DNA of 64,000 nt, taken from the IMG/VR virus record IMGVR_UViG_3300029931_000011, one strand, 5' to 3'. The stretch's first letter is position 1; each line of letters begins with the position of its first letter. This stretch comes from a virus. The position numbers and the translations under genes are program-made. The notes beneath the pieces were generated by a model. The model was given only the letters and a program-made list of their open reading frames with translations. It had not been told where the DNA came from and did no database searches. Of the stretch, positions 3,469 through 61,985 are shown in pieces.

Positions 3469-3872
3469 TTCGACCCCTCACCATCCCTGGGAGCCTCTGG
3501 AGCGAGGAGCAGGCGGAGCCTGTCAGCCCGTTCGTTGCTCTCCCACTTGTCGCGGAAGTACGGCGTGGCGTAGCCCCACCCCTCCTCCGCAAGATCGATC
3601 GCCTCCCTCAGCCACGCCTCCAGCTCCTCGAGCCTGGAGAGCAGGGCGTCGGCCGAGTTGCGCAGGGCGACGATGCCGGCGGCGTCGGGGTCGCCAGTCG
3701 TGGGGCCATTCTCGACGGTGCCCATCGTGGCGATGTGCGGCTCCCAGTCGTCACCCTCGTCGTCGGTGGACTGGTAGATGCTGACGGTCGGCCACGGACC
3801 GCAAACCTTCCATGGCCCCGGGCTCATCTTCGCCAGCACCTCGCGCAGTCCCTTCAGGTCTAGGTCACCCAT
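3465..3872 (-). CDS. Ead/Ea22-like phage protein
   Basis: Track ORF of 135 aa. N-terminal SPGPWKV motif followed by ...AAGIVALRNSADALLSRLEELEAWL, a pattern I associate with the Ead/Ea22-like family. Confidence 0.5.
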   Translation of the reverse strand: MGDLDLKGLREVLAKMSPGPWKVCGPWPTVSIYQSTDDEGDDWEPHIATMGTVENGPTTGDPDAAGIVALRNSADALLSRLEELEAWLREAIDLAEEGWGYATPYFRDKWESNERADRLRLLLAPEAPRDGEGSK

Positions 3873-4599
3873 TGCTCTCCTCCTTGGCCTTGAGTGCGGC
3901 GATGCCCGCCATCACCAGGGCAATGCCCAGGTCGATGGCAGCCGCGGGGTCATCTGGCGCTGTCACCCCTTTCCAGTTGCGACCAGAGATGGCGGCCTCA
4001 AGCGTCTGAAGGGGGACACCGAGAACTCGGGCGAGGTAGCTCGTGGATGCGCCGTGTGACTTCATCAAGAGCGCGTCGCTGACGATCTTCTCGGTGAGCG
4101 TGTTGCGTCTCGTGTTTCGGCTTTGCTCGTCGCGCGTCGCCCACCGGCAGTTTCCCGGCTCGTAACCCTTGTCGTTGTCGATGCGGTCAAGGGAGTGCAC
4201 CGGGGAGGGCTTCGGCCCCATGTCCGCCAGAAACGACTCAAAGGAACCGGACCACCGGTCACAGACCGCAATTCCGCGTCCCACATAGTTGTGCGCGCCC
4301 CTCCTCGTCGACCGTCCGCATCGATCCTTCATGTTCATCCACGCCTGGTACTCGCTCTTGTGCATGGACCGGAGAACGCTCGCTTCCTTGCGAGCGCATC
4401 CGCAACTCGGGGCCCCGCCACCGCGCGCGACCTGACGTGGACTGGCATCGTCGCGCTCGACGGCCCTTCCGCAATCGCACTGGAACATCCAGAACCACGA
4501 GTGGCCGACCTTGCGTGTCCGCTCCCTCGCCACTAGTCGCCCGTATCTCGTACCCGGAGACGTGGGCGCCAGCACCGGCTCGTCGCTACGCCGCGTCAT
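3865..4599 (-). CDS. Degenerate-HNH (DRID) nuclease-like protein, paralog P1, with C-terminal HTH
   Basis: Track ORF 3865..4707 trimmed to Met37, with GGAGG 6 nt upstream. Core YVGRGIAVCDRWSGSFESFLADMGPKPSPVHSLDRIDNDKGYEPGNCRWATRDEQSRNTRRN. N-terminal CDCG...SCGC. Confidence 0.7.
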   Translation of the reverse strand: MTRRSDEPVLAPTSPGTRYGRLVARERTRKVGHSWFWMFQCDCGRAVERDDASPRQVARGGGAPSCGCARKEASVLRSMHKSEYQAWMNMKDRCGRSTRRGAHNYVGRGIAVCDRWSGSFESFLADMGPKPSPVHSLDRIDNDKGYEPGNCRWATRDEQSRNTRRNTLTEKIVSDALLMKSHGASTSYLARVLGVPLQTLEAAISGRNWKGVTAPDDPAAAIDLGIALVMAGIAALKAKEESNG

Positions 4600-4821
4600 C
4601 GCTTGCCTCCATCTCGGGTCTCGGTCTGCATCGCGTCTCCCTCGGTTGCTCTCGTGGTGAGCCGACGACGTGTCACCGTCGCCGGCCCGGGCCGCCACGC
4701 TCGACATGGGCGGCCTTGTCGCCGTGCCTACGTTGAGGCGCGCGCACCGCGCTGCGGTACTGACGAGTCGGGACCGAGCCCGACCTCCTCGATTTGGTTC
4801 GAGTCGTCCATGGTGGTCACC

Positions 4822-5475
4822 TCAGAAGCGACGAAGCGCGCGAGCGATCGGCGACGGCTCGTGCGCGAGATCGGCGGTCGCGAACGGGATGTCGTCGTCG
4901 GGCCCGCCCCCGCCGTAGCTCGAGCCGGGCGCGTTCGGGTGCGCGTCGCGGCGCGGCGGCGGCGCGGTGCGGTTGGGCGGCGGCGCCGCCGACCGCTGCT
5001 GCTGGCCGCCTCCGTTGCCGCCGATCTTGCTCTTCATCTTGCGCGCGAAGTCGAGCACCTCAGCATCCGTCATCGCATTGCCCTTGAGGTCGACCTTCAC
5101 CGCCCCGATGCGATTCACCCACTTCACCTTCGACCGCCACTTGCCGTCGTTGCCGAGCTTGAACTCGCGCACGAGCGACACCTCGCTGGCGCACGCACCG
5201 CCGTCGACGATCGCGGGGAGCTCGGAGAGGTCGTCTCCGGTCCACCCGCACGTGCGGAGACCGTCGATCGTGTACTCGTAGAACGAACGGCCCTTGCTGC
5301 TGACGTCGTCCGAGAGCGAGGCGAACCACGTCTCGTACTTGCCGGCGTCCTCGCCGTCGAGGATCTTGAAGCGGCCGACGAGCTGCGGACGACGCACGCC
5401 CTCGTACTCGTCCCAGCCGAACTGGACGCCGCGCAGAACGCCGCGGCAGCGGATCTCGTAGGTGTCATTGCTCAT
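4822..5475 (-). CDS. DUF669-like single-strand DNA-binding protein
   Basis: C-terminal 217 aa (MSNDTYEIRC...) of track ORF 4822..5814. Gly/Pro-rich tail containing DDDIPF (the SSB tip motif). Position is directly downstream of the Sak4-like ATPase. Confidence 0.65.
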   Translation of the reverse strand: MSNDTYEIRCRGVLRGVQFGWDEYEGVRRPQLVGRFKILDGEDAGKYETWFASLSDDVSSKGRSFYEYTIDGLRTCGWTGDDLSELPAIVDGGACASEVSLVREFKLGNDGKWRSKVKWVNRIGAVKVDLKGNAMTDAEVLDFARKMKSKIGGNGGGQQQRSAAPPPNRTAPPPRRDAHPNAPGSSYGGGGPDDDIPFATADLAHEPSPIARALRRF

Positions 5476-6641
5476 GGCGCGGTCTCCTCGGTGCTGGTCT
5501 CGGTCTCGGGGTTGCTGGTGTCGGTGTTGTTCGCGGTGGTCTCGATCGGCGTCGACTGCTGGAGGCCGACGAGGTAGCGGTGCAGCGCGCTGGTGTCGTC
5601 GCCGGCGCGGGCCACGGCCTTGCGCATGGCCTCGACGTGGACCGGGCGCTCGTCGGCGGACATGAACAGCGTGCCGAGCCGGTCGAGCTCGGCCTCGATG
5701 CTCTTGCGCAGGCCGTCGGGGCTCATCGAGTAGAGCGCCTCGAGTGCGTCTGCGAACGGTGCCCACTGCGCCTCGCTGGCCAGATCGATCTCCGACGGCA
5801 TCGGCAGCGAGCACTTCGCCGCCCAGGTCGTCTTGCGCTGGAGGTGGATGATGCGGTTGCCCGAAACGCCGATCGCCTTACGGCCGATCTTCCGCACCGA
5901 GTCGTCGTAGGTGATGAACCCCACGACGTCGCACTTCTCGAGGAGCACGCCGGCGGCCTTCTCGTCGAGGCGCGGGCGGAAGATGTCGAAATCCTCGGCG
6001 AGCACCGACTTGTACTTGGCCACCACGGCGTGACCGAGGAGGATGACGTGCATCCCGGCCTTGAACCGGACGTCGTCGAGGCGCCGCACGAGGACGCGCC
6101 ACATCTGGACGGCGATCTTCTGGCCGCTCGAGTAGCCGAAGTCCTCGATGTTCTCGATCTCCTTCCCCTCCTTGTTGCGGTGCCCGCGGGCCCGAGCGTC
6201 CTCGACGATGCGGTCGAAGATGAGCTGCTCGAGCGCGGCCACGCCGTCGAGCACGACGGTCTTGTAGCCGTACTGCTTCGCGTTCACGACGAGGTCGTCG
6301 AGCGCGTCTTCGACCTCGGTGAGCGTGCGCGCCACCGTGCCCTCGTCGCCCTCGGCGGGGCGGAACGGGTAGCGAGTCACGTGGAGATGGCGGGTGCGGC
6401 CCTCGATGTCGAGGAAGATCGGAGACGGCGCGTCGGCAGCGAGGCTCGACTTGCCGATGCCCTCGTCGCCGTAGAACCAGAACAGCTTCGGATCGCGTCG
6501 GGCGCCGGCCACGACGGCGCCGAGCTTGGACGCCTTCACGGGTGCCGGGGCCGCCGGCTTGGCGGTCTGCGTCGTGCCGGACGCAGGGCGGGCGCCGTTG
6601 GCGGGCGCGGGACGAGGGACGGGTGCGGTGTTGGTCGCCAT
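5472..6641 (-). CDS. AAA_24 / Sak4-like RecA-family ATPase
   Basis: C-terminal 389 aa (MATNTAPVPR...) of track ORF 5472..8027. Walker A reads FWFYGDEGIGKSS; Walker B-like reads TVVLDG. ATGA overlap with the downstream SSB gene. Confidence 0.75.
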   Translation of the reverse strand: MATNTAPVPRPAPANGARPASGTTQTAKPAAPAPVKASKLGAVVAGARRDPKLFWFYGDEGIGKSSLAADAPSPIFLDIEGRTRHLHVTRYPFRPAEGDEGTVARTLTEVEDALDDLVVNAKQYGYKTVVLDGVAALEQLIFDRIVEDARARGHRNKEGKEIENIEDFGYSSGQKIAVQMWRVLVRRLDDVRFKAGMHVILLGHAVVAKYKSVLAEDFDIFRPRLDEKAAGVLLEKCDVVGFITYDDSVRKIGRKAIGVSGNRIIHLQRKTTWAAKCSLPMPSEIDLASEAQWAPFADALEALYSMSPDGLRKSIEAELDRLGTLFMSADERPVHVEAMRKAVARAGDDTSALHRYLVGLQQSTPIETTANNTDTSNPETETSTEETAP

Positions 6642-6664
6642 GCGATCGCTCCTCCTTCGAGCGG

Positions 6665-7702: not shown

Positions 7703-7738
7703 GGAGTCTCCTGCGCACCCTCGGGCGCGCGGCTGGGG

Positions 7739-14719: not shown

Positions 14720-15030
14720 CCGCGCTCGTCGTCACCTTCGCCATCCTCATCGCGATCGCCATGAGCGGGTACGCGCTCTGGTGCATGGTCCGCCATCATC
14801 GGACGAGGACCGACTGGAATCCGCTCGGGCGCGACCGCGCCGCGCGCATGTCGCTCCTCGGCACGATGCCGTGCGTCGACTGCCTCGGCGACCTCGGCCA
14901 GTGCCGGCCGTGGTGCGTGCGCGCCGGCGGACGCGGCGACAACCTGCAGGGCGACCGCGACTCGAGGCGCGTTGACGACCAGGATCGCCAGGTCGCGCGC
15001 CGCACGCGGCGCAGGGCGGTGGCGGCGTGA
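14716..15030 (+). CDS. Membrane-anchored small protein (104 aa)
   Basis: Tail of track ORF 14524..15030 from Met65, with an ATGA overlap. N-terminal TM segment TALVVTFAILIAIAMSGYALWCMV, then CVDCLGDLGQCRPWC. Confidence 0.5.
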   Translation: MTALVVTFAILIAIAMSGYALWCMVRHHRTRTDWNPLGRDRAARMSLLGTMPCVDCLGDLGQCRPWCVRAGGRGDNLQGDRDSRRVDDQDRQVARRTRRRAVAA

Positions 15031-15638
15031 CCCGCCCCATCGTCCTCCTCGATGTCGACGGCCCGCTCGCGCTGTTCGTCGAGGCGTGCCAGGCCGAGCT
15101 CGCCGGCCACGGCGTCTACCGCGAGGCTGCCGCCGTCAAAACGTTCCGTCTCGAGGAGGCGTGGAGCCTGTCGCCCGACCAGAAGCAGATCCTCGCGCGC
15201 GCCTACAAGCGTCCAGGGTTCTGCGCTGGCATCGCGCCGCGCGAGAAAGCGCGAGAAGCCGTCGAGCGCCTGCGCGGCATCGCCGACGTCTACGCGGTCA
15301 CCGCGCCGATGTGGAGCGGGCCGACGTGGCAGCACGAGCGCACCGAGTGGCTCGTCGATCACTTCGGGTTCCAGCGCGACCACGTCGTTTCGACGTCGGC
15401 AAAGTACCTCGTCGGCGGCGACGTGCTCGTCGACGATCGCGCCGAGACGCTGGTGATGTGGGAGCGACACGGGCGGGCGTCTGGTGTCGGCGTGCTGTGG
15501 GCGATGCCGCACAACTTCAACGCGTGGGCCAACGGCGAGTGGGACGGCGACCGGACTAGCGACTGGCAGGTCGTGATCAACCTGGCCGAGCGACTGGCAG
15601 GCGCGCGCGATCCGCAGGAGGCGACGCGTCGTGCGTGA
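15027..15638 (+). CDS. 5'(3')-deoxyribonucleotidase (HAD superfamily)
   Basis: Track ORF of 203 aa. The N-terminal LLDVDGPLA is HAD motif I. Overall length and layout fit the NT5C-type phage nucleotidases. Confidence 0.65.
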   Translation: MTRPIVLLDVDGPLALFVEACQAELAGHGVYREAAAVKTFRLEEAWSLSPDQKQILARAYKRPGFCAGIAPREKAREAVERLRGIADVYAVTAPMWSGPTWQHERTEWLVDHFGFQRDHVVSTSAKYLVGGDVLVDDRAETLVMWERHGRASGVGVLWAMPHNFNAWANGEWDGDRTSDWQVVINLAERLAGARDPQEATRRA

Positions 15639-16143
15639 TCGCCCCGGCGTCATGGTGGTCAACGTCGCCACCGGCGAGACCCGTCCGCGCGCGCGGAAGG
15701 GTCCGCTCAAGCACGGTCTCTCGCGGACGCCCGAGTACCGCGCGTGGCAGACGATGCGGCACCGGTGCACCCGGCCGACAAGCCCAAGCTGGCCCGACTA
15801 CGGCGGACGCGGCATCACCGTCGCCGCCGAGTGGCTCAATGACCCACGAGCCTTCATCGCCCACATCGGGCCGCGCCCATCTCCGAAGCATGAGGTCGAC
15901 CGCATCGACAACGAGCGGGGCTACGAACCAGGCAATGTTCGATGGGTCACGCGCCCGGTCAACGACCGCAACCGACGGAGCAACAACCTCCAGACGTTCA
16001 ACGGCGAGACCCTGACGATCGCCGAGTGGGCGGAACGCACCGGCATCAGCGCCGACACGCTCTACGACCGCATCACCCGGCGAGGTTGGTCAATCGAGAG
16101 GGCACTGACGACTCCGGTGCGCGCAAAGGCGAGGGCGGCGTAG
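15631..16143 (+). CDS. Degenerate-HNH (DRID) nuclease-like protein, paralog P2, with C-terminal HTH
   Basis: Track ORF of 170 aa. Core YGGRGITVAAEWLNDPRAFIAHIGPRPSPKHEVDRIDNERGYEPGNVRWVTRPVNDRNRRSN. Lacks the N-terminal CxCDCG element. HTH-like segment LTIAEWAERTGISADTLYDRI. Confidence 0.7.
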   Translation: MRDRPGVMVVNVATGETRPRARKGPLKHGLSRTPEYRAWQTMRHRCTRPTSPSWPDYGGRGITVAAEWLNDPRAFIAHIGPRPSPKHEVDRIDNERGYEPGNVRWVTRPVNDRNRRSNNLQTFNGETLTIAEWAERTGISADTLYDRITRRGWSIERALTTPVRAKARAA

Positions 16144-22195: not shown

Positions 22196-22488
22196 GCACC
22201 GAAGACCGCGACGTGTACCCCGCCGTCGTCCTCAACCCCGAGGCGATCGGCGAACCCAACCAGACGCCGGAGGTGCAACTCTCGCCGGCGCTGGTCGCCC
22301 TCGCGCGGGGCGAGTCCGCGGAGTCGGGCCCGTGCCGGAAGTGCAAGCGCGACGCACCGCCGAGCGCCGACGCCCTGGCCGCCAAGCTCGCGCGCGAGGA
22401 CACGGGCGGCCCGATCGAATGGCTGTCGTACGAGGAGCAGGAGCGGTGGCGCCGGATCGCGCGGCACGCGCTCGAGGTGATCGGGTGA
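22192..22488 (+). CDS. Hypothetical protein
   Basis: Track ORF of 98 aa. 4-nt overlaps on both sides. Confidence 0.5.
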   Translation: MSTEDRDVYPAVVLNPEAIGEPNQTPEVQLSPALVALARGESAESGPCRKCKRDAPPSADALAAKLAREDTGGPIEWLSYEEQERWRRIARHALEVIG

Positions 22489-23039
22489 GCGCCTCCGACG
22501 ACACCACGCCGACCGTTGAGGTCGTCGACTACTCCGACCTGCGGCCCTGCCCGCCGCTCCCCGGGCCGTTGTACGTCGACGACGAGCGCCTACCGCCGAA
22601 CTTCTGGTCCAAGGTGACGCCCGAGCCGAATACTGGCTGCTGGCTGTGGTTTGCCTGTGGTTCTGCTGATGGGTACGGGCAGTCGTTCGTGACGGGGAGG
22701 CAAGTGTACGCGCACAGGCTGGCGTACATCGTTCTTACCGGTCACGACCCGGGCGCGCTCCAGTTGGACCACCTGTGCCGCACGCGCTGCTGCGTAAACC
22801 CGGCACACCTCGAGCCGGTGACGAACGCCGAAAACTCGCGCCGGGGGCGCATTCGCCAGGTCACGAAGGAACGACACGCGGCCAAGACGCATTGCGTGAA
22901 CGGGCACCCGTTCACCGACGAGAACACCCTCGTCCGCACAGAGCAGGGGCGCTCTGGCGTCTACGGCATCCGACGTTGCCGAGCGTGCAACCGGGAACGG
23001 ATGCGGAAGCTTCGTAAGCTACGAAGGGAGTCGGCATGA
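22485..23039 (+). CDS. HNH endonuclease (canonical), with a borrowed N-terminal segment
   Basis: C-terminal 184 aa of track ORF 22086..23039, from GTG at 22485. Contains GCWLWFACGSADGYGQSF...LQLDHLCRTRCCVNPAHLEPVTNAEN plus CVNGH...CRAC. The N-terminal VVDYSDLRPCPPLPGP duplicates the N-terminus of the next gene. Confidence 0.8.
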   Translation: MSASDDTTPTVEVVDYSDLRPCPPLPGPLYVDDERLPPNFWSKVTPEPNTGCWLWFACGSADGYGQSFVTGRQVYAHRLAYIVLTGHDPGALQLDHLCRTRCCVNPAHLEPVTNAENSRRGRIRQVTKERHAAKTHCVNGHPFTDENTLVRTEQGRSGVYGIRRCRACNRERMRKLRKLRRESA

Positions 23040-23113
23040 GGGACGAATTTCAAGACGAGGGGCTCGTTGTCGACATTTCCGATCTTCGACCATGCCCATT
23101 CCTGCCTGGACCC
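22569..23113 (+). mobile_element. Putative HNH cassette (HNH core plus a replacement 5' end of the downstream gene)
   Basis: Bounded by two copies of the VVD(Y/I)SDLRPCP(P/F)LPGP coding segment, at 22521-22568 and 23066-23113, 545 bp apart. In the second copy 9 of 16 codons end in A/T; in the first, 0 of 16. Confidence 0.5.
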
Positions 23114-27788: not shown

Positions 27789-27914
27789 ATGACCCCGATC
27801 CGCGCCCTCGCCGCCATCCTGACCGCCATGCTCGTCCTGGGGGCGTGCGGGGACTCAGGCCCCGGGGAGGACGGCGAGCTGCCGGCGGCGTTCACCGTGA
27901 TGGAGGTACACTGA
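27789..27914 (+). pseudogene. Truncated 5' fragment of a lipoprotein gene (41 codons)
   Basis: Tail of track ORF 27444..27914: MTPIRALAAILTAMLVLGACGDSGPGEDGELPAAFTVMEVH*. It has a lipobox (LGAC) and shares GEDGELPA(A/G)F with the intact lipoprotein at 28558. Confidence 0.6.
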
Positions 27915-28650
27915 TGCCCCCGTTCGTCGACTACACCGGGAAGCGATTCGGAGCCCTGGTCGTTGAAGGGAAGGCGGCGCAGACTGCCCACGGCAAGTTC
28001 CGCTGGTCGTGCCTGTGCGACTGCGGCGCCCGGACCATCGTGGAGGGGCGGTGCCTGAAGAGCGGCGGCGTGAGCTCCTGTGGATGCCAGCGGCGTGCGC
28101 GAATCAGCGCGAAGGCACGGGCGCGCTGGGGTGACCCGCTTGCGCTCAAGGAGAACAACCCGGTCGAATACAATGCGTGGGCGAACATGATCAATCGCTG
28201 CGAGAACCCACGTAACAAGTTCTTCTCGAACTACGGCGGTCGAGGCATCAAGGTCTGCGCCGAGTGGCGTGAGAGCTTCGCGCGCTTTCTTTCCGACATG
28301 GGCAAGCGCCCATCGCCGGGGCACTCCCTCGATCGCATCAAGGGCGACGGGAACTACACGCCGCTCAACTGCCGATGGGCGACCCGAGTTGAGCAGAACC
28401 GAAACCGACGCAACTGCCTCGAGCCCCACGAGCCTGACCAGATCCGGTGGCTTCGCGCCAGTGGGTACACGAATCGTGAGATCGCCTGCTTCTTCGATGT
28501 GCACTATTCCTCGGTCGCCCGCATTGCCCAGGGGCGTACATGGACGGAGGCTGCGTGATGCGTACATGGTTGGCTGCGGTCGCGGTCGCGGTGATCGCCG
28601 CGTGTGGTGGTGGCGGCGGGGGCGAGGATGGGGAGCTGCCGGCGGGCTTT
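27894..28650 (+). mobile_element. Putative nuclease-gene cassette (P3 plus a replacement 5' end of the lipoprotein gene)
   Basis: Bounded by the two GEDGELPA(A/G)F coding segments, 27864-27893 and 28621-28650. By my count 24 of 30 nt are identical. They are 757 bp apart. Confidence 0.5.
27914..28558 (+). CDS. Degenerate-HNH (DRID-type, here DRIK) nuclease-like protein, paralog P3, with C-terminal HTH
   Basis: C-terminal 214 aa (MPPFVDYTGKRFG...) of track ORF 27584..28558. Contains CLCDCG...SCGC. Core YGGRGIKVCAEWRESFARFLSDMGKRPSPGHSLDRIKGDGNYTPLNCRWATRVEQNRNRRN. TGATG junctions at both ends. Visibly more A/T-ending codons than its neighbours. Confidence 0.75.
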   Translation: MPPFVDYTGKRFGALVVEGKAAQTAHGKFRWSCLCDCGARTIVEGRCLKSGGVSSCGCQRRARISAKARARWGDPLALKENNPVEYNAWANMINRCENPRNKFFSNYGGRGIKVCAEWRESFARFLSDMGKRPSPGHSLDRIKGDGNYTPLNCRWATRVEQNRNRRNCLEPHEPDQIRWLRASGYTNREIACFFDVHYSSVARIAQGRTWTEAA

Positions 28651-29001
28651 GAGGTCAACGCGACACGAACGGATGGCGGTGGACCCGTCGTGAGCTGTCC
28701 GTCCACGCCGTCTTGGCGTGCGTGGTTCGAGGATGTGTCCTCCACCGGCGCGACCCTCACGCCGAATGGCGCCAGTGGGCCTGGGGCATGGGTGTGCGGG
28801 GCGCCGATGCGCGTCGACGGCGCGTGGGTCGTAGGCTGCGAGGCGAATACCGGAAGCGTCACGGTTTCGTCGGTGTTCACCTTCGCCGACGCTGGCGGAG
28901 GAGTGATCGATCACGTCGGAACCTTCAACGCTGACGGGAGCGCCGCCTGCGCCTCGTCGTACCGCATCGACTCCATCGTCGAGGACCTCGACGGCCCGTG
29001 A
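28558..29001 (+). CDS. Lipoprotein
   Basis: Track ORF 28540..29001 trimmed to Met7. MRTWLAAVAVAVIAACGGGGGGEDGELPAGF has the lipobox IAAC. The mature part contains several Cys. Confidence 0.65.
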   Translation: MRTWLAAVAVAVIAACGGGGGGEDGELPAGFEVNATRTDGGGPVVSCPSTPSWRAWFEDVSSTGATLTPNGASGPGAWVCGAPMRVDGAWVVGCEANTGSVTVSSVFTFADAGGGVIDHVGTFNADGSAACASSYRIDSIVEDLDGP

Positions 29002-39740: not shown

Positions 39741-42155
39741 TCAGCGGGCGAGGGCGCCGCGCAGCTTGCCGGTGTGCTTGGCGAAGATGTCGATCACGAC
39801 CTGCTCGCCCTCGGACGAGCGGAGGAACGTCGCCACGAGCGCGTTCGGGTCGCCGGCGAGCGTGATGGAGAGCGGCACCGAGACGCCGCCGCTGGGCGCG
39901 TTGCTGTTGGCGGCGAGGCCCGGGTTCGTGACGGTCACGATCTCGCCGGGGGTCGCGCGGAAGAAGACGCCCTGCGAGTCGGGGCCGCCGGTGCCGCCGA
40001 CCCGGAATTGACCGCCGCCGGCGAAGTTGCCGCCGGTGATCAAGCCGGCCAGTAGCCCGCCCATCGACGTGAGAGCAGGTTGCCCGCCGGCACCAGTCGT
40101 GCCGAACCCGGCCTGCACCGCCTGGAGGAGCAGCATCTTCGCGATCAGGAGGGCGATCTCCTTGAGCAGGTTCTGCACGATCTGGCTGAAGTTGTTCTCG
40201 AAGGCGATGGCCGAGCGCAGCGCCTCATCGAAGGCGCCCGCGAACTCGTTCTTCATCGCGCCCTCGAGCTCCATCATCGGACGCTCGAAGTCTTCCTTGG
40301 CCTTGGCGGCGACCTCGCGTTCGACCTCGGCCAGCGCACGCATCTTCTCGCGCACGTCCTGCAGGAGCTCGAAGCGTTCCTGCGCCGCGTTGGCGGCCTT
40401 TGCCTCTGCCTCGGCGCGCTGGTCGGCCGCCCTGGCCGCCGCTTCCTCCGCCCGCACAAGCTCGTCGAGCTGGCCCCACTGCTCGGAGGTCAGCTCGACG
40501 CCCTTGCCGCGCAGGTCGTTCTCGATCTCGAGGAGCCGGGTCGTTCGATTCCGAACCTCCTCGCTCTGTCCGAGTAGGACGATCTCGCGCTCGATCTCGC
40601 GCACCACGGCCGCGTAGGGATCCAACTGGTCGCGGAGCATCTCCTCGCGCTGCGCCATCAGCGCGTTCGCCTCCTCCTGGGTCGTCAGGTGCGCGCGCAC
40701 GGCGCGGTCGAGGAGCCTCTGGGCCTTCTCTAGCTCCTGCTCCGCGGCGGTGACGTCGGAGAGCGAGCCGAGGAACGAGTTGTACTCGTCACGCAGCCGC
40801 TTCATCGCGTCGGCTGCGTCCTTGTCGCGCTTCATCTGCGCCTGTCGACTCTTGGCGCCGTCGCCGACGCCCTGGATCATGGCGCGCGTGGCGATCGGGA
40901 TGAGCGCCGCCGCCTGCTGCTCGGCGACGAACTTCGCCACCGCATCCTTCTGCTCGAGCCGCTGCGCCATCCCGGCGAAGCCGCCGAACTCGGTGTTCTT
41001 GGCGACGTCCGCGAGGAGCCCCTTCATGCCCTCGGTGTGGCGCGAAATCTCCTTGAGGGTGTCGACCAGATCGCCGACCCGCGACCCCTTGCCCGAATCC
41101 TGGACGGCGCCGTAGATGTCGCTCGCGGCGTTGTAGCTGCCCGTGATCGGGTTGAGGTAACGACGCGCCGTGCTGACCCCGCGCCAGAGCGCACCCCCGT
41201 CGAGCTGGTAGCCGCCGATCGAGATGTCGCCCAGCTCTCCGACGGCCTTCGATGCCATCGCGCCGACGCTGGCCACCATGCGGAGGCTGTCCGCGAGTCC
41301 GGCCAGCGCAGAGCCGAGGAGCTCGACGGCGCGGGTGTTCTGCGCGAACTCCGAGAGCGACTTCGACGCCTCGTTGCGAAACTTCGTCCACTGCTCGGCG
41401 AACGTCGGTAGGCGCTCCGCGTACTGGTCGAGCACCTCCTGACGCTGCGACTTGAGCGCGCTGATGACGACCTGCGAGGTGAGCTTGCCCTCGTTGGCCA
41501 TCGCGCGCATCTCGCCGCGAGTCTTCCCGAGGCTCTTCGCGATCAGGTCGATGATGATCGGCGCCTGCTCGAGGACGCTGTTGAACTCCTCGCCGCGAAG
41601 CGCACCAGCGCCGAGACCCTGAGAGAGCTGGGTGAGCGCAGCGTCGGCGCTGGCACCGGAGGCACCGCTCGCCTTGATCGCCTTCGTGAGCGTATCGACG
41701 GTCTCGATCGCCTGCCGCTGCGAGCCGCCCATGTCGGTGACGGCCTTGCCCACCTGACGGTAAAGGCCGACGACGGAGCCGAACTCCGACCCGGTCTCCT
41801 GCGCCGACTTGAACAGCTCGCGCTGCGCGATGATCTGCGCCTGGGTCGCCCCGTGCATCGCGCGAAGCTGGCTGGTAGCGTTCGTGTAGGCGTCGGCCAT
41901 GTCCATGGCCTCGCGCGCGCCGAACGCGGTCGCCAACCCAGCCACAGATCGCCCGACCGCCCCGGCGAGGTCGCTGCGCCGGGCGTCGCTGGCTGCCTTG
42001 CGCATCCCGTCGCCGATCGACTTCGACATCGCCTCCGACGACTTCTTCGCCTGGCGCTCCATGCCGATGAGCTCGCGATCGATCACGTCCGCCCCACGCT
42101 TTCCCTGCGTGGGGTCGATCGTCACGACGATCTCGAAGTCTTCATCGTTCGCCAT
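39741..42155 (-). CDS. Tail tape measure protein
   Basis: Track ORF of 804 aa. Long alpha-helical/coiled-coil sequence with a Gly-rich C-terminal part. Lies directly downstream of the G/GT chaperone pair. Confidence 0.8.
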   Translation of the reverse strand: MANDEDFEIVVTIDPTQGKRGADVIDRELIGMERQAKKSSEAMSKSIGDGMRKAASDARRSDLAGAVGRSVAGLATAFGAREAMDMADAYTNATSQLRAMHGATQAQIIAQRELFKSAQETGSEFGSVVGLYRQVGKAVTDMGGSQRQAIETVDTLTKAIKASGASGASADAALTQLSQGLGAGALRGEEFNSVLEQAPIIIDLIAKSLGKTRGEMRAMANEGKLTSQVVISALKSQRQEVLDQYAERLPTFAEQWTKFRNEASKSLSEFAQNTRAVELLGSALAGLADSLRMVASVGAMASKAVGELGDISIGGYQLDGGALWRGVSTARRYLNPITGSYNAASDIYGAVQDSGKGSRVGDLVDTLKEISRHTEGMKGLLADVAKNTEFGGFAGMAQRLEQKDAVAKFVAEQQAAALIPIATRAMIQGVGDGAKSRQAQMKRDKDAADAMKRLRDEYNSFLGSLSDVTAAEQELEKAQRLLDRAVRAHLTTQEEANALMAQREEMLRDQLDPYAAVVREIEREIVLLGQSEEVRNRTTRLLEIENDLRGKGVELTSEQWGQLDELVRAEEAAARAADQRAEAEAKAANAAQERFELLQDVREKMRALAEVEREVAAKAKEDFERPMMELEGAMKNEFAGAFDEALRSAIAFENNFSQIVQNLLKEIALLIAKMLLLQAVQAGFGTTGAGGQPALTSMGGLLAGLITGGNFAGGGQFRVGGTGGPDSQGVFFRATPGEIVTVTNPGLAANSNAPSGGVSVPLSITLAGDPNALVATFLRSSEGEQVVIDIFAKHTGKLRGALAR

Positions 42156-42158
42156 GGC

Positions 42159-53196: not shown

Positions 53197-54795
53197 TTAC
53201 TCCTCCTCCTCGGGGTCGTCGTCCTCGTCAGGATCTTCCTTGCCGAGCTTGGCCATCTCGGCCGCGACTGCGCGCTCCTCCTCACGCCGCAGCACGAGGT
53301 CTGCGTCGTCGTGGGCCCTCATCGGCGGCGCGCCGAGGTGCTCGAGGAAGAAGTTGACGATCTCCTCGACGCGGTCGGGCGAGGCGCCGGCCTTCTGGAG
53401 GAAGTCGCCGACGGCCGCCATCGCGCTCGGGATGTCCTGGAGCTCGATCGCGGCCCACGTGAGCGTCGGCGCCGTCTCCGGGTCCCAGCCGTTCCACGCC
53501 CAGAGGGGCATGACGAGGTCGCGGCGGAAGGTCTCCGCGATGCGGTTGAGCACCGACGTCACCGTGCGAATCGCCGCCGCCATCTTGCTCGCGTGCATCG
53601 CGTCGGAGCCGCGACCCTCCTGGCCGAGGAGCAGGTACTCGAAGCCGAGCAGCGCGAGCAGCTGCCACGTGAGCCGATCGATCCGCCGCTCGAGCGCGTC
53701 GAAGCTCGAGGCCTGCGAGGCGAGCACCTCGGCGTGCCACCGCCGCACCGGCGACGGGCTCTGATCGGTCGACGGGTAGGTGCTCGAGTCGAGGATGAGC
53801 CCGCCACCCTTGCGCACCTTGGCGTCGACGAAGTTCTTGACCGGCTGGAACTCGGCGTCGAAGTCGGTCGCCGTGTAGCCGCTGTCCTTCTGCGCGACCT
53901 TCCCCTTCCGCTCCATCACCGGCCCGTACACGATCGGGACGCCGTTCACGTCCTTCTCGAAGGCGCGGTTCTGGTAGCGGACGAGCTCCTGCATCTGCCG
54001 CACCGCCTCGGCGAGCTGGCGCATGACGCCGCAACCCTCCGGGTGGTCCGTGATCGGGATGTCCTTCGTCCACACCAGGCGGCCGCGCTCGATCGGGTGC
54101 TCGGTGCCGTCGTTCGGATCGCGCTGCACGATCCCGACGACCTGGCCGCGCTCGTGCTCCCACCGCTCGACGGTGTGCGGCGACAGCTTCATCAAGTCGA
54201 GCAGACCAAAGCGGCCGTCGGCGAGCCGCTTGAACGTCCACGCCTGCAGCGCGTAGCCGTCGAGCGTGGACATCGCCGCCGACATCACGGCGTCGGCCCA
54301 CTGCGTGTCCATGGAGCCGATCTGCTTCTGCAGCCAGGCCGCGCGCTCCTGATCCTCGGGCGTCGCCTCCTCGGCGGCGTCGGCCTTGTACGGCTCGACG
54401 GTCCACGTCGGCGAGCCCGCGAGCGTCAGGTACGCGCGCACGCCGAGCCCGACCGGGATGACGTTGCGCTTCCACTCGTCGAAGTTCCTCCACCTCGACG
54501 CGCCCACCATCTCGCCGTTCTTCTCGTTCGACTGCGGATAGCCGCCGTACCACGAGTAGCCCGGCACGCCCGCGCGCTCGGTCGGGCCGGCCGCCTTCTC
54601 GACCGCCGCCGCCTCGGTCGCCGACGAGGCCCGCTGCCCATGCAACGGCTCCTCCGACACGGGGTGGTAGTCGTCGAGCGCGTTACGCACAGGTTCCGGC
54701 GGCGGCATCGACGCGACGCCGAGCCAGGACGTGAAGCGAGAGAGCGCACGCATGGTCGGGGCCATGCTGCGGCCGCGATGGCGCGCGCCCCACAT
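53197..54795 (-). CDS. Portal protein
   Basis: Track ORF of 532 aa. The ATG lies directly after the terminase stop (TGAATG). Size and the acidic C-terminal tail are typical. Confidence 0.75.
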   Translation of the reverse strand: MWGARHRGRSMAPTMRALSRFTSWLGVASMPPPEPVRNALDDYHPVSEEPLHGQRASSATEAAAVEKAAGPTERAGVPGYSWYGGYPQSNEKNGEMVGASRWRNFDEWKRNVIPVGLGVRAYLTLAGSPTWTVEPYKADAAEEATPEDQERAAWLQKQIGSMDTQWADAVMSAAMSTLDGYALQAWTFKRLADGRFGLLDLMKLSPHTVERWEHERGQVVGIVQRDPNDGTEHPIERGRLVWTKDIPITDHPEGCGVMRQLAEAVRQMQELVRYQNRAFEKDVNGVPIVYGPVMERKGKVAQKDSGYTATDFDAEFQPVKNFVDAKVRKGGGLILDSSTYPSTDQSPSPVRRWHAEVLASQASSFDALERRIDRLTWQLLALLGFEYLLLGQEGRGSDAMHASKMAAAIRTVTSVLNRIAETFRRDLVMPLWAWNGWDPETAPTLTWAAIELQDIPSAMAAVGDFLQKAGASPDRVEEIVNFFLEHLGAPPMRAHDDADLVLRREEERAVAAEMAKLGKEDPDEDDDPEEEE

Positions 54796-56355
54796 TCACT
54801 CGTCGTACGTGCCGGCATCCGACGGCGCCCAGGTTCCGACCTGGTTCGTGTCGATCCCGCCGCCGCCGCGGTGGAGCAGGTTGAAGGCGTGCCGCGCCCA
54901 ATCGACCTGATCGTCGTGCGGGTCATCGAGGCCGGTGAACTCGCGGTGCTCCTCGATGAAGTCGTGCCAGTCGTCGAGCGGGTCGTCCGGGTCGGAGAGC
55001 GGCACCTCGACGCGCGCCTGGTTCCATGCGTCGGCGTAGGGCGTCGCGCCCTCCATCTTGCCGCCCTTCGTGAACGCCGCCGGCAGCGGGAAGACCTGCA
55101 CCTCGCCATCGAGCGCGCGGATCACGTCGGGCATCGCCGAGAAGCCGCCCACCGCTTCGACGTAGATCGGTAGCCCGTACTCCTTGGCCATCGGCTTCAC
55201 GTGCTCGCGAAGGAACGCTGGCACCGAGGCCTGCGCGCGCTTGTTGCGGAGGATGCGCGCGCGCTCGTTCTCGCCGATGCCGATCATTCCCATGACGCCG
55301 GCGGCCTGGTAGTCGCTCGAGGTCTTCTTCGTGCCCGCCGGATCCCACACGAGCGCGAGGCGCCACGCCTGCCCGTCGAGGCCAAGCCCCTCGAGCTTGT
55401 AGCGTTGCGGCTCGTCCTGGAAGAGCTTCGAGTCGCGCGGCCGCGGCTCCTGCTGGTAGAGCGACCACCAGCGATAGGCGCCCTTCGCGCGCTGCTTCCG
55501 CGCCCACTCGATGTCGTAGCCCGCCTCGGGCCAGAGCGCGATGTGGATGTCGGGGTCGAAGTCCTGCCCCCGCGCACCACCGTCGACGGGTTCGCCGGTG
55601 CGCGCGTCGACGACCGCGGCGAGCTTGATGTGCTCCCACGTCTCGCCGAGCCCGTCGCGCATGATACGGCCGAGCGGGTCGTCGAGGTGCCATCGTGTGC
55701 CGACGAGGAAGTTGCTCGCGCCGCGCTCCATGCGCGTCATGACGTCGTCGAGCAGGTACTCGAAGGTCTTGTCGCGGATGAGGCGCGACTCGGCCGCGAT
55801 GCGGCCCTTGAGCATGTCGTCGTTCACGATCGCGCCGCTGTTGCAGCCGCGCCCGGTGATGTCGCCGCCGACGCTCGTGGACTTGAGCCCGCCGTCGAAG
55901 GTCGTTGCCCAATCGTGCACGTTGGCGCGGTCGTCGGCGATCGGGACGCCGGCCTTGCGCGCGAGCTTGCGCGTCTTGTACGAGAAGTCGGTCGCGAGCG
56001 AGTCGCCGAAGGTGACGTAGAAGTTGAGGCACGCCGGATCGCGAAGAAGTCGCCACGCGAGGTACTGGCGCAGCGACGTCGACTTCCCGAAGCGCGGCGG
56101 CATCGAGCAAGTGACGTGCACCGGCCGAATGCGGCTCTCCTGGAACAGCGCGTAGAGCCGACGCAGGTGCCGCGGCACGACGCGTCCGAGCTCGGGCGAG
56201 TGCTGGTGCACGAAGTCGACGAAGGACAGCCCGCCGTGCTGCGCTTCGTACAGCGTCCGGTACCGCTCCTGGTCGGCGGGCGACAGCCGCGCCAGCTCAG
56301 CCGGCGTCAGCGCCACCAGTCGGCTCGCTCGGTGCGGACGCCGCCTCGCGCGCAC
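54796..56355 (-). CDS. terL: Terminase large subunit
   Basis: Track ORF of 519 aa. Walker A reads CSMPPRFGKST. A C-terminal nuclease-like part follows. The start is uncertain; GTG at 56316 is an alternative. Confidence 0.8.
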   Translation of the reverse strand: MRARRRPHRASRLVALTPAELARLSPADQERYRTLYEAQHGGLSFVDFVHQHSPELGRVVPRHLRRLYALFQESRIRPVHVTCSMPPRFGKSTSLRQYLAWRLLRDPACLNFYVTFGDSLATDFSYKTRKLARKAGVPIADDRANVHDWATTFDGGLKSTSVGGDITGRGCNSGAIVNDDMLKGRIAAESRLIRDKTFEYLLDDVMTRMERGASNFLVGTRWHLDDPLGRIMRDGLGETWEHIKLAAVVDARTGEPVDGGARGQDFDPDIHIALWPEAGYDIEWARKQRAKGAYRWWSLYQQEPRPRDSKLFQDEPQRYKLEGLGLDGQAWRLALVWDPAGTKKTSSDYQAAGVMGMIGIGENERARILRNKRAQASVPAFLREHVKPMAKEYGLPIYVEAVGGFSAMPDVIRALDGEVQVFPLPAAFTKGGKMEGATPYADAWNQARVEVPLSDPDDPLDDWHDFIEEHREFTGLDDPHDDQVDWARHAFNLLHRGGGGIDTNQVGTWAPSDAGTYDE

Positions 56356-56884
56356 GGCGCTCGAGCTCGGCCAGCTCGTCGAGACGCGTCGCCGGCGTCG
56401 CCTTGATGGCCGCGATCACCGCGTCGAGGCCTCCGGTGCCCACCTCGACCTTCGTGAGCTTCAAGCCGAGGAGGTCCATGATCTTCCCGGCCGCGGCGAT
56501 CGCGTTCTTCCGGTCCTTGGCCTCGCGGCACTCGAGCAGGAGGTCCTCGAGGATGCGGAGCAGCCGCGCGCGCTCGAAGGGTGCGGCGTCCTTGTCGATC
56601 TCGGCCCACCGCTCCGAGATGGCTTGCTTGTAGCGCCAGACGTGTCGCTCGGTCAGGCCAAACTGGCGAGCGATCTCCTCGACAGCGAGCCCCGGCGACT
56701 TCCCGCGCGAGAGCAACTCGGAGAGCGCGCGTCGGACCTCAACCCGCCCGAGTTGCGCGTCCGCCTGCTCCTGCTCCTCGGGCGTGAACGTGGTGACGGT
56801 CGCGCCTTCGGCGTCTCGTCGCTTCCGCGGGCGGCCGAGCGGCTTGCGCGTGGTCCGTGGCTTGGTCTTCGGCTTCGGGGGCAT
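56297..56884 (-). CDS. terS: Terminase small subunit
   Basis: C-terminal 195 aa (MPPKPKTKPR...) of track ORF 56297..57160. Basic N-terminus and HTH LAVEEIARQFGLTERHVWRYKQ. Confidence 0.65.
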   Translation of the reverse strand: MPPKPKTKPRTTRKPLGRPRKRRDAEGATVTTFTPEEQEQADAQLGRVEVRRALSELLSRGKSPGLAVEEIARQFGLTERHVWRYKQAISERWAEIDKDAAPFERARLLRILEDLLLECREAKDRKNAIAAAGKIMDLLGLKLTKVEVGTGGLDAVIAAIKATPATRLDELAELERRAREAASAPSEPTGGADAG

Positions 56885-58925: not shown

Positions 58926-58926
58926 C

Positions 58927-59903: not shown

Positions 59904-60037
59904 CGATCGGGCTTTTCATCGTCGGCGCTATCGCCTTCGTCGTGATGCTCGGCGCTGGCGGCTACTGGCTCGTGCGCACGATCGCCGGCCCGAACGATGT
60001 GATGGACCGCGATCGGGATGGGGACATCTACGAATGA
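59900..60037 (+). CDS. Small single-TM protein (45 aa)
   Basis: Own reading; below the track cutoff. GTG start with a GTGA overlap. VTIGLFIVGAIAFVVMLGAGGYWLVRTIAGPNDVMDRDRDGDIYE*. Confidence 0.4.
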   Translation: MTIGLFIVGAIAFVVMLGAGGYWLVRTIAGPNDVMDRDRDGDIYE

Positions 60038-60258
60038 TGGCCCCGCGCGCGACCGCCCGCTTCCTCCTCGCGCTGACCGCGTCCTCGGTCGTGTGGACCG
60101 CGCTGCTCGCGTGCCTCGGGTGGACCGCCGCCGCCGGGCTCTGCGCGGCCGGCGGCGTCTGCTCGCTCGTGGCCGCTCTCGTCCTGTGGCGCTGGGTGAT
60201 GCCCTGGTGGTGGGGGATCGCCGCGGCGGGCGCGCTGTTCGACCGGAGGCGCAAGTGA
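60034..60258 (+). CDS. Holin-like multi-TM small protein (74 aa)
   Basis: Tail of track ORF 59872..60258 from Met55, with an ATGA overlap. Contains FLLALTASSVVWTALLACLGW...LCAAGGVCSLVAALVLW...WWWGIAAAGALF. Confidence 0.5.
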   Translation: MMAPRATARFLLALTASSVVWTALLACLGWTAAAGLCAAGGVCSLVAALVLWRWVMPWWWGIAAAGALFDRRRK

Positions 60259-60515
60259 CCGCCATCAAGCCCCGCAGCCACGCCGTCAACCCCACCGCCG
60301 AGGTGCAGTCGTTCCGCGTGCAGCAGAGCGCGCTGGCGACGCAGATCGCGATCGTCGAGGGGCGCGCGATGATCTGCGGCCACGACCCGATCGCCGGCCG
60401 CGACTTCACGATCACCATGACGCGGTTCTACGTGGATCGTCGCCCCGTCGAGGACGGCTTCGCGCCGGCCGACGACGACCCGTTCACGTTCGACCTCAGC
60501 GACACGAAGGAGTAG
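60255..60515 (+). CDS. Hypothetical protein
   Basis: Tail of track ORF 60018..60515 from GTG, with a GTGA overlap. Confidence 0.5.
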   Translation: MTAIKPRSHAVNPTAEVQSFRVQQSALATQIAIVEGRAMICGHDPIAGRDFTITMTRFYVDRRPVEDGFAPADDDPFTFDLSDTKE

Positions 60516-60518
60516 CCC

Positions 60519-61313
60519 ATGCCCTCGTTCCTCTCCCGCCTTCTCGCGCCCTTCCTCGCGACGTGGCGCCAGCTCCTCACGCCGCCCGCCATCCCGTCCA
60601 CCGACGTGCTGATGAGCGAGACGGAGTCCGAGATCGATGCCGACGTGATCGAGGCATGCGGCAAGCTGGCGATGGCACGCCTGACCGAACTGTGGCGGCA
60701 GGATATCTACGACCCTCGCCACACCGAGACGAGCGAGAACGCCGAGCGGTGCCGCGCTGCGATCCTCGACATCATCCACAACGGCGGCGGGTGGCGGTGG
60801 ATCAAGCGATACGGCGGCGACGGCGCACCCGCGGCAGAGCACGCCGAGTGGTGCGGCTTCACGCAGGCGTGGGCGTGGGCGCCGTGGATCCCCGAGGAGA
60901 CGCGGAAGACGTGGTGGGCGTCGACGTACCGGCTCGATGCGTGGGCGCGCTATGCGGCGCTCGACATGAGCGGGAAGACCACGCCGAACCCGAAGCCGGC
61001 GCGCGGGCCCTTCCGCCTCTACGTCAAGCTCGACGAGCACTCGACGAAGCTTCCATTCCAGCCGCAGGCCGGTGACATCCTGCTCGTGGGCGACGGGAAG
61101 CCTGACTACGGCGACCACGTCTGCGGCGTGCTCGGGTACGACGAGAAGCGGCGGATGTTTTCTACGTTAGAAGGAAACGGCGGCGGCCTAGGGCCAGATG
61201 GAAAGAAGCAGCACGGTCTAGTGAAGGCCGAACGCCCCCTTGGGGCGACGTCCGGTCACTCGTACCACGCGCGGCGCCTCATCCGGCTTTCGCCGTCGGA
61301 CCTGATTCCGTAG
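60519..61313 (+). CDS. Endolysin, CHAP/NlpC-P60-like cysteine peptidase-amidase
   Basis: Track ORF of 264 aa. Candidate catalytic Cys in AEHAEWCGFTQAWAW. His in GDILLVGDGKPDYGDHVCGVLG, followed by STLEGNGGG. Confidence 0.65.
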   Translation: MPSFLSRLLAPFLATWRQLLTPPAIPSTDVLMSETESEIDADVIEACGKLAMARLTELWRQDIYDPRHTETSENAERCRAAILDIIHNGGGWRWIKRYGGDGAPAAEHAEWCGFTQAWAWAPWIPEETRKTWWASTYRLDAWARYAALDMSGKTTPNPKPARGPFRLYVKLDEHSTKLPFQPQAGDILLVGDGKPDYGDHVCGVLGYDEKRRMFSTLEGNGGGLGPDGKKQHGLVKAERPLGATSGHSYHARRLIRLSPSDLIP

Positions 61314-61985
61314 CCCACGCGCCGTCGTTGAGTACGTGGCTGACGGCTGACTCCGAGCAGCCGACCGCGTCGGAGATGGCCTTGTAGCTGTTGCCTTCTG
61401 ACCGCAGCGCGCGAATGCGTTCCGCCTTCTCCGGGGTGAGAACGACACCGCGACGATTCCTCGCCTGTGTCGTCGGCAGCGCCCACCGGCAGTTGCCCGG
61501 CTCGTAACCCTTGGTGCCGTCGACGCGATCGATGGAGTGACGCTTCGACGGGCGCGGGCCCATGTCGGCGAGGAACGCCGCGAAGCTCTCGCGCCAGCGG
61601 TCGCACACGGTGATTCCGCGGCCGCCATAGTCCGCGTAGTCGCCGCAGTTCGTGTCGGCGCACCGCTGGCGCATCCGCTTCCACAGGCCGAAGTCCGGGT
61701 GGCGTCGCTCGTCAGCGCGAGCGAGCCCATGCCTGAACTTGACCCTCGAGATACGCTCAGCCGCGCCCTCGCGCTGAAAGCATCCGCACGAGCGGGTCTT
61801 GCCGTTGCGAAGGGTTCCTGCGCGGACCACTAGTTCGCCGCCGCAGTCGCAGCGGCAGTGCCATGCAGCGTCTTTCCACTCGGGCTTGGCGACGCGCTCG
61901 ATGACGAGAAGCCGCCCGAACCGCTGACCGCGCAAGTCAATGAATGCCGGCATGTGACATCGATAGTCACGAATACCGGCGGCGC
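61224..61985 (-). mobile_element. Putative nuclease-gene cassette (P4 plus a replacement 3' end of the endolysin gene)
   Basis: Bounded by two 90-nt copies of the endolysin 3' end, 61224-61313 and 61986-62075, 762 bp apart. Confidence 0.5.
61279..61953 (-). CDS. Degenerate-HNH (DRVD) nuclease-like protein, paralog P4, with C-terminal HTH
   Basis: Track ORF of 224 aa. Contains CRCDCG...SCGC. Core YGGRGITVCDRWRESFAAFLADMGPRPSKRHSIDRVDGTKGYEPGNCRWALPTTQARNRR. Its 3' end overlaps the endolysin 3' end by 35 bp in antisense. Confidence 0.75.
   Translation of the reverse strand: MPAFIDLRGQRFGRLLVIERVAKPEWKDAAWHCRCDCGGELVVRAGTLRNGKTRSCGCFQREGAAERISRVKFRHGLARADERRHPDFGLWKRMRQRCADTNCGDYADYGGRGITVCDRWRESFAAFLADMGPRPSKRHSIDRVDGTKGYEPGNCRWALPTTQARNRRGVVLTPEKAERIRALRSEGNSYKAISDAVGCSESAVSHVLNDGAWATESGPTAKAG

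Follow-up and report, generated by a model that had tools for sequence, protein, structure and literature searches.

Can the members of a phage protein family cut DNA when none of them has the histidine that defines an HNH endonuclease? The question is raised by four genes, here called A to D, in a 64,000-nucleotide stretch of phage DNA (hereafter the window) from the IMG/VR virus record IMGVR_UViG_3300029931_000011: gene A (3865..4599, minus strand, 244 amino acids), gene B (15631..16143, plus strand, 170 amino acids), gene C (27914..28558, plus strand, 214 amino acids) and gene D (61279..61953, minus strand, 224 amino acids). They belong to a big phage family that is labelled "HNH endonuclease" but invariably lacks the HNH-defining histidine, and for which we found no Pfam or NCBIfam model, solved structure or assay. 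Several free-standing HNH-type genes in one phage are well known, as in Cluster J (PMC3706429), and the family is already annotated as HNH endonuclease; the local finding, being ordinary biology, is therefore not the point. With moderate confidence, we hold that A to D are free-standing selfish genes of the homing endonuclease type and that their common core is a His-Me finger that has lost its histidine and still nicks or cuts DNA.

An invariant arginine within a six-residue signature

An initial sequence-only reading had aligned by eye a common core in four open reading frames, and both the reading frames and the core were confirmed: whole-protein identity to the first sequence is 37-39%, with 31 invariant columns, and the invariant core columns include Y-G-R-G-I, W, F, G, P-S, H, D-R, Y, P, N, R-W and R-N-R. 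When a profile of the core (~89 amino acids) was compared with the six-frame translation of the window, exactly four matches were obtained (E 1.6e-37 to 1.8e-41), and since the next match had an E of only 0.22, no copy of the core was missed and chance is excluded.

To describe the core across the family, residues were counted in 580 domain instances, 443 of them from 264 proteins and 137 from IMG/VR loci. Position 61 is Arg in 572 instances (437/443 and 135/137) and His in none. The surrounding positions are similarly constrained: Asn at position 72 in 575 instances, Tyr at position 68 in 562, Asp or Glu at position 60 in ~96%, Gln (516) or Asn (18) at position 81 and, three residues further on, Asn at position 84 in 526. 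The signature [D/E]-R...Y...N...[Q/N]..N is complete in 496/580 instances (86%) and in all of A to D. Position 68 is Phe in 17 instances, 16 of which lack another signature residue as well (Fisher p 1.5e-13), so the signature residues behave like a single functional site whose parts are lost together. These counts indicate that the Arg-for-His replacement is a stable variant under purifying selection and not a decayed copy. The earlier description of the genes as "degenerate" is misleading, given that the Arg is invariant in a family of more than 100,000 clusters and lies within a co-conserved signature. An upstream His (H57) was considered as a displaced base or zinc ligand and ruled out: it is present in only 245/443 and 50/137 instances, and a residue conserved in only about half of them is unable to stand in for the missing base.

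Modules of the four proteins

The zinc-ribbon-like N-terminus that had been noted in three of the four proteins is present in A, C and D as FGRL...CxCxCG...SCGC, and not in B; in the AlphaFold model of gene D, this module is predicted to form three strands. The C-terminal helix-turn-helix-like (HTH) tails that had been proposed for all four are also real, though weakly detectable. The Pfam matches of the tails lie below curated thresholds (HTH_38 for D, E 4.7e-4, and C, E 0.011; HTH_17 for B, E 0.078) and the tail of A has none, while the tails match PHROG DNA-binding families at E 7e-6 to 2e-3 and the gene D model has three helices at residues 174-209. The tail of B is of a different, excisionase/HTH_17-like type from the tails of A, C and D.

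In gene A (minus strand) the zinc ribbon is at ~4390-4551, the core at 4099-4365 and the HTH-like tail at ~3955-4098; its signature is DRYNQN, and it matches phrog_374 (E 8e-50) and the hidden Markov model (HMM) of the core (E 2.6e-40). An alternative upstream ATG at 4707 is possible for this gene, and gene callers differ on its start, giving 166 or 244 amino acids. Gene B (plus strand), whose first 8 nt lie within the end of the upstream gene (15027-15638), carries its core at 15721-15987 and its tail at ~16009-16125; it has the signature DRYNNN and matches phrog_3377 (E 7.1e-51) and the core HMM (E 1.6e-37). In gene C (plus strand) zinc ribbon, core and tail are at ~27944-28090, 28154-28420 and ~28427-28543, with the signature DRYNQN and matches to phrog_374 (E 3.8e-60) and the core HMM (E 3.7e-40). 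In gene D (minus strand) they are at ~61780-61920, 61441-61707 and ~61327-61434, with the signature DRYNQN, a match to phrog_374 (E 6.3e-62) and AlphaFold predicted local distance difference test (pLDDT) values of 86.3 and, for the core alone, 92.9. The strands of the genes are as first described, with both orientations represented, but this needs correction in one respect, in that each of the five nuclease-type genes, the canonical HNH gene treated below included, runs in the same direction as its local transcription unit.

The core of B lacks two of the three usual cysteines (VC is replaced by VA and NCRW by NVRW), and these two positions tend to vanish jointly across homologs. Such joint loss suggests that the two cysteines may be in mutual contact, through a zinc site, a disulfide or packing.

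Size and annotation of the family

The core matches PHROG 374, 3377, 8790 and 2081 ("HNH / restriction endonuclease") with E values between 1e-26 and 1e-62, the values for those annotated "HNH endonuclease" lying between 1e-38 and 1e-62; the four PHROGs, together with RefSeq and UniProt entries named "HNH endonuclease", represent the same family as A to D. The suggestion that the four genes are of nuclease type is thus supported in that they fall in phage PHROGs annotated as HNH endonucleases. Weaker cross-matches were to other HNH and Endo VII PHROGs, among them phrog_59, which is also matched by the canonical HNH_3 gene of the window. The family comprises 127,427 clusters at 50% identity at E <= 1e-3 and 109,884 at E <= 1e-10, and more than 7,700 90%-identity clusters match among the 8,000 candidates scored. 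In cultured phages it is found in 884-946 records from many hosts, mostly with one match per record (995 matching places in 884 records; 1,063 in 946) as opposed to the four seen here. Cultured members include those of Ralstonia phage RSF1, Enterococcus phage EfV12-phi1, Staphylococcus phage SEP9, Twort (ORF076) and Mycobacterium phage Courthouse (G8I5L0); the cultured-phage members are less than 60% identical to A to D and are named by annotation only. Among predicted structures, BFVD returned only members of the same family, with TM values of 0.8-0.9 at 33-54% identity.

Labels on family members are inconsistent, ranging over HNH endonuclease, homing endonuclease, AP2 protein, DNA-binding protein, dUTPase, RNA polymerase subunit and hypothetical. 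In Pfam and NCBIfam scans of the five proteins, the core of A to D was without a match (no Pfam family at E <= 1 over the core), and PDB sequence searches with whole-protein and core profiles gave HTH matches and one chance lipoprotein match, the core being unmatched. A Pfam-recognised nuclease domain is absent from 118 of the 120 best homologs, which leaves the core as the sole catalytic candidate. One member is fused to AP2 (P0096), and several polypeptides (P0121-P0128, P0009, P0036, P0063, P0080 and P0101) contain 2-4 tandem cores and/or 2-3 tandem FGRL...CxCxCG...SCGC modules. In our literature searches we found no described Arg-variant HNH and nothing relevant for the motif strings, no description of a family-wide Arg-for-His and Gln-for-Asn change with a co-conserved Tyr, and no remark on the missing Pfam/NCBIfam model for so large a family.

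Some members occupy unusual places. In Salmonella phage vB-SeS-01 (L015, OP494211.1) a 247-amino-acid member lies at 2584-3327 (plus strand) inside the coding sequence 1151-4249: the DNA polymerase intein of Jerseyvirus contains a complete family member, zinc ribbon and core, nested out of frame, where the intein's endonuclease would be expected, and the intein's own frame stays open along its whole length. Matches to this nested member are present in about 156 Salmonella phage records, and it resembles the "hidden out-of-frame HNH" reported in PMC11855218. In a phage with a 55%-identical large terminase (L008), a member at 106-738 lies ~1.5 kb upstream of the terminase gene, a position that differs from all four in the window. 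With regard to Courthouse, its Arg-family member G8I5L0 is labelled "uncharacterized", and gp46 of the same phage (L136, 12079-12624), tried as a mobile family member, was rejected because it is a canonical HNH_3 and AP2 protein with D-H, like the fifth gene of the window.

Origins and insertion footprints

The four genes had also been called paralogous. They are indeed homologs, but duplication within this genome did not hold up, as every core has many foreign homologs that resemble it more than its siblings do: identity to foreign domains is 60-66% (92% for D) and to siblings 47-58%, and in a ranking of ~580 domains by similarity the siblings come only at places 68-449. Genes A to D were independently acquired and are not recent intragenomic duplicates. 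Their G+C content at third codon positions (GC3), 0.78-0.81 for A, C and D and 0.84 for B, is at the low end among the genes of the window.

Insertion scars had been claimed for three of the five nuclease-type genes; flanking partial duplications were verified at C, D and the canonical HNH gene. At gene C, a 41-codon remnant of a lipoprotein-gene 5' end, with signal peptide and lipobox (27789..27914, plus strand), ends at the ATG of C and repeats in diverged form the beginning of the intact lipoprotein gene at 28558-29001 (64% amino acid identity over 25 residues, E 2.5e-8); the direct repeat is of 46 nt (27843-27888 and 28600-28645, 72% identity). At gene D, the 3' end of the gene overlaps by 35 nt a convergent CHAP-like lysis gene (60519..61313, plus strand, 264 amino acids), some homologs of which have PF05257 (CHAP) or PF01471. 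On the other side of D is a remnant of the 3' end of a CHAP-like gene (61986..62075, plus strand), reading KAERPLGARSGHGYHARRLIRVAPHDLIG and then a stop codon that abuts the convergent gene 62076-62321. This remnant and the resident gene end at 61224-61313 are diverged copies (76% amino acid identity over 33 residues, E 1.5e-12, tblastx), and the remnant also matches the C-termini of CHAP orthologs on four other contigs (L137, L138, L139 and L016). From the two gene-end copies around D, the arrangement before insertion could be reconstructed, with the last ~90 nt of the lysis gene, the inferred target gene, as the target.

The canonical gene (22485..23039, plus strand, 184 amino acids) carries D95-H96...N105...N117 and is an HNH_3 endonuclease gene, as had been noted: it matches PF13392 at E 3.3e-9 (36.7 bits against a cutoff of 24.8) and phrog_826 at E 1e-46, and it has 2,357 homologs, with PF13392 on all of the 120 best listed. 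Its scar (22521..22568 versus 23066-23113, plus strand) is of the same kind as those at C and D, in that its own N-terminus, VVDYSDLRPCPPLPGP, duplicates the N-terminus of the downstream gene, VVDISDLRPCPFLPGP; 14 of 16 amino acids are identical, and the aligned DNA differs at 16 of 50 positions.

The distribution of gene D among relatives was informative. No family member lies within 4 kb of the CHAP orthologs in L137 (67% identity), L138 (57%) and L139/L140 (58%), whereas L016, with a CHAP ortholog of 60% identity, has a D-like gene of 78-80% identity with the same 35-nt overlap, and there the upstream neighbour is unrelated, a serine recombinase. The D-like gene is therefore better conserved than the CHAP gene next to it (78-80% versus 60%). 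This presence and absence contradicts vertical fixation, and the distribution fits horizontal spread of a cassette made up of D and the lysis gene end. Contigs L137-L140 are not clean empty sites, since their downstream genes differ from those of the window. In the proposed search for empty sites, D was absent near three CHAP-ortholog contig types, and relatives for the sites of A, B and C were not found. A search of IMG/VR with the large terminase gave only relatives of at most 55% identity, whose gene order was different; the gene beside B (phrog_210) led to no relatives for an empty site; with the tail-assembly gene beside C and the AAA_24 gene beside A, only pieces of this same phage were recovered; and scanning metagenomes with the CHAP alignment and genomes with the large terminase found nothing. 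Among the marks of homing genes, sporadic presence incongruent with flanking genes was seen for gene D only, and an insertion footprint (co-conversion tract) was seen at C and D.

Predicted fold and proposed action

We think it most likely that the core is a derived form of the His-Me finger (beta-beta-alpha-metal) belonging to the HNH_3 / I-HmuI lineage, and the features of that lineage most likely kept in it are the acidic D/E60, the structural N72 and the helix-borne amides Q/N81 and N84. The core-only AlphaFold model (pLDDT 92.9, predicted template-modelling score 0.80) has a helical N-terminal half followed by a strand (58-61), a second strand (73-76) and a helix (78-86), so that the predicted fold ends in a beta-beta-alpha unit, with the co-conserved Tyr68 in the loop that links the strands. 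In a profile-profile comparison with a 48-protein HNH_3 alignment (hhalign), "F..DMG.rPs..hslDRi" was placed on "aYe.LvG.iP.GL.qLDHL", with the Arg over the catalytic His, and on direct reading N-C-R-W-A-T-x-x-E-Q of the core parallels [N/H]-L-[R/E]-x-V-T-x-x-E-N of HNH_3, from which it follows that the metal-binding Asn of HNH_3 corresponds to Gln81. The earlier proposal that the core resembles HNH_3 with His changed to Arg was reproduced as far as the D-R on D-H register and the shared N-x-R-W-x-T-x-x-E-(Q/N) are concerned, but the statistics are weak and Pfam is unmatched. Likewise, in the suggested check against PF13392 and HTH models, the fifth gene scored above the cutoff, the core of A to D was unmatched and the HTH was weak in B, C and D. 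The support for homology to HNH_3 is consistent but weak, and we regard derivation of the core from HNH_3-type His-Me fingers as probable.

In general build, A to D are like the HNH_3 / I-HmuI homing endonucleases (PF13392; His-Me finger group 2, PMC5714182), which are phage-borne and modular and have a small catalytic-type core with HTH, AP2 or zinc modules; common to both are the predicted beta-beta-alpha end of the core and the succession of helix, x-L-D-[H/R]-[IL] and N-x-R-W-x-T-x-x-E-[N/Q], and the scars at C and D are of the kind left at the HNH_3 gene of this same genome. Unlike HNH_3, the family of A to D always has Arg in place of the His and Gln in place of the metal-binding Asn, has an extra conserved N-terminal helical half (W..M..RC...YGGRGI.VC..W) and the loop Tyr, and is not detected by the PF13392 model. 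Placement of new genes beside lysis genes has a parallel in the Cluster J mycobacteriophages, which have several HNH-type genes per genome, with precise insertions beside lysis genes and presence or absence among relatives (PMC3706429). Courthouse gp46, the published case of such a precise insertion that was checked, has the canonical D-H, as noted above.

The active site would be non-canonical and is probably still functional, by analogy with the restriction enzyme PacI (PDB 3LDY), a beta-beta-alpha-metal enzyme in which Asp and Asn bind a single metal and Tyr stands in for His (PMC4081073, PMC5714182). Neither PacI nor the family has a catalytic His, and in the family the loop Tyr is just as conserved and a D...Q/N pair is present; unlike A to D, PacI is dimeric, with two Cys4 zinc sites and an 8-bp target. 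We infer metal binding, cleavage and the roles of the Arg and Tyr. Built from optional N-terminal Cys-rich strands, the 89-amino-acid core and the C-terminal helix-turn-helix, the protein would use its zinc-ribbon and HTH modules to put the core on a specific site of an allele without the gene, which for gene D would be close to where the CHAP-like lysis gene ends. The core would then nick or cut, with one metal ion held by D60 and Q81/N84, while Tyr68 would take over from His as base or nucleophile, as in PacI, and the phosphate or transition state would be stabilised by Arg61. Repair by recombination with the gene-bearing phage would then bring a copy of the gene, along with some flanking donor sequence, into the recipient, and we propose that this copied sequence is what is seen as the diverged partial duplications at C and D.

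Evidence against cleavage and alternative explanations

A number of observations weigh against active homing endonucleases of HNH_3 descent. The general base is absent, the E-N metal ligand of HNH_3 is E-Q in the core, and H57, four residues upstream of R61, is unconserved. The conserved residues of the core are Arg-rich (R15, R30, R61 and R74), as on DNA-binding surfaces, and up to four tandem cores occur in one polypeptide, while in 2 of the 120 best homologs (P0068 and P0087) there is an extra canonical HNH domain; both features would also suit a DNA-binding module. Pfam HNH models gave no match at all to the core of A to D. The hhalign comparison with the HNH_3 alignment was weak (P 0.002-0.005, probability 7-12%), and against a single canonical protein the core gave no match. 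In Foldseek searches of the PDB, the whole gene D model had no match and the core-only model nothing significant, the best match being PacI (E 0.79, TM 0.32). No flanking scar was found at A or B, nor any relatives with which to compare their sites, and the genes downstream of the CHAP orthologs in L137-L140 are unlike those of the window. No assay of any family member was found in the literature.

Several of these points would be expected if the core were a catalytically dead ex-nuclease domain that only binds DNA, like SMAD MH1, with the proteins acting as regulators, as anti-defence factors or as hitch-hikers on breaks made by other nucleases, for example the canonical HNH gene. The absence of the general-base His from 580/580 instances, the many arginines among the conserved residues, the 2-4 tandem cores and 1-3 zinc-ribbon modules per protein, and the occasional fusions to a true HNH (P0068, P0087) or AP2 (P0096) are all in keeping with this explanation, and trans-homing of a defunct endonuclease is reported for T4 mobE / I-TevIII (PMC2790892). 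Inactive His-Me fingers such as SMAD MH1 and the ENPP nuclease-like domains are, like the family, without the catalytic His, and in them the fold survives as a pure DNA- or ligand-binding module (PMC5714182, PMC3384342). However, the MH1 and ENPP domains have also lost the equivalent Tyr and their catalytic regions have devolved, MH1, which binds DNA only, having kept neither the metal site nor the Tyr (PMC5714182, PMC3384342), whereas the family keeps the acidic residue, the amides and the Tyr together in 86% of instances and, where the putative metal ligands and loop Tyr are lost, they are lost jointly. As judged from sequence, the conservation pattern of the family thus resembles PacI and not MH1. 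In addition, 98% of the best homologs are without any other nuclease domain, and the independent acquisitions, the footprints and the conservation above that of the neighbouring gene are as predicted for an autonomous selfish gene. A family of 127,427 clusters would also be hard to sustain without a nuclease of its own. For these reasons we consider a dead domain unlikely, though it is the strongest of the alternatives.

It is less probable still, and in our judgement improbable, that the core is an unrelated fold, either a new nuclease or a new DNA-binding domain, with a convergent DRID...N.RW and with "HNH endonuclease" labels that are propagated mis-annotation. The lack of any Pfam/NCBIfam, PDB sequence or significant Foldseek PDB match, the low hhalign probability and the inconsistent database annotations speak for such an origin. 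Nevertheless, convergence would have to explain a predicted strand-loop-strand-helix with the motif residues at the canonical places, and the coincidence of the D-R/D-H register, the preceding helix (F..DMG.rP on aYe.LvG.iP) and the N-x-R-W-x-T-x-x-E-Q spacing. The weak fold matches are furthermore enriched for HNH nucleases (5 of the 14 weak Foldseek PDB matches of the core), and a chain of PHROG cross-matches via phrog_59 connects both families. Finally, that A to D are vertical paralogs, duplicated in this phage lineage, fixed in position and serving a phage function, is very improbable, for although they have a common architecture, are all co-oriented with their neighbours and are identical in every near-identical contig from several samples, the low sibling ranks, the footprints at C and D, the absence of D from the closest CHAP-gene relatives and its presence in a more distant one, and the low-end GC3 (0.78-0.84) all stand against it.

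The phage genome

The window is a phage genome, with genes for a large terminase (54796-56415), a portal (53197-54795), a tape measure (39741-42158), tail proteins and an exonuclease. An identical gene D protein was found on 24 metagenome contigs, and six collection blocks with this protein hold contigs of the 50-200 kb class. The three long contigs with gene D that were returned are of 65.4-65.7 kb and come from different samples; the same sequence, of roughly 65.4-65.8 kb, was assembled in several metagenomes with differing start points. On one of them (L001), window positions 1 and 64000 are joined with only 1.5 kb between (L001 6406-7953). Based on this junction-spanning contig and the varied start points, the genome is circular or circularly permuted and essentially complete, and the window represents 64 kb of a roughly 65.7-kb genome. 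The missing 1.5 kb contains the end of an integrase-like gene (498 amino acids) and the start of a radical-SAM-like gene. The integrase-like gene suggests that the phage may be temperate, but the description of the window as one prophage is not supported: the sequence is that of a complete, circularly permuted phage contig present in several metagenomes, and none of the matching long contigs has host flanking DNA attached. No match to cultured phages was obtained with the first 25 kb (megablast).

A protein like single-stranded DNA-binding protein (SSB), with an acidic DDDIPF tail, was read from the translation of an open reading frame near gene A. Near-identical contigs around gene A differ only here (window 4898-4979 versus L003 1456-1508), by replacement of 82 nt with 53 nt in the low-complexity C-terminal part of the SSB-like gene.

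Implications for the family

For both D and C a target site can be reconstructed in this genome, at the 3' end of the CHAP-like gene and the 5' end of the lipoprotein gene, respectively, and whether these proteins cut DNA is thereby directly testable. More tentatively, and with somewhat less than even expectation, we propose that the DRID family as a whole (more than 100,000 clusters at 50% identity) is a very large, unmodelled class of active homing endonucleases in which the His base has been swapped for an Arg/Tyr-based mechanism, with PacI-like or GIY-YIG-like chemistry on an HNH scaffold. Were this so, the family would be among the most abundant uncharacterised types of phage nuclease and might supply new modular nickases. 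Should the proteins not cut, "endonuclease" would be the wrong annotation in tens of thousands of cases, and their selfish-like spread would need another explanation. If they do, theirs would be the second way, after that of PacI, for a His-Me finger to work without its His, and they would explain a large share of the mosaicism of phages at gene boundaries.

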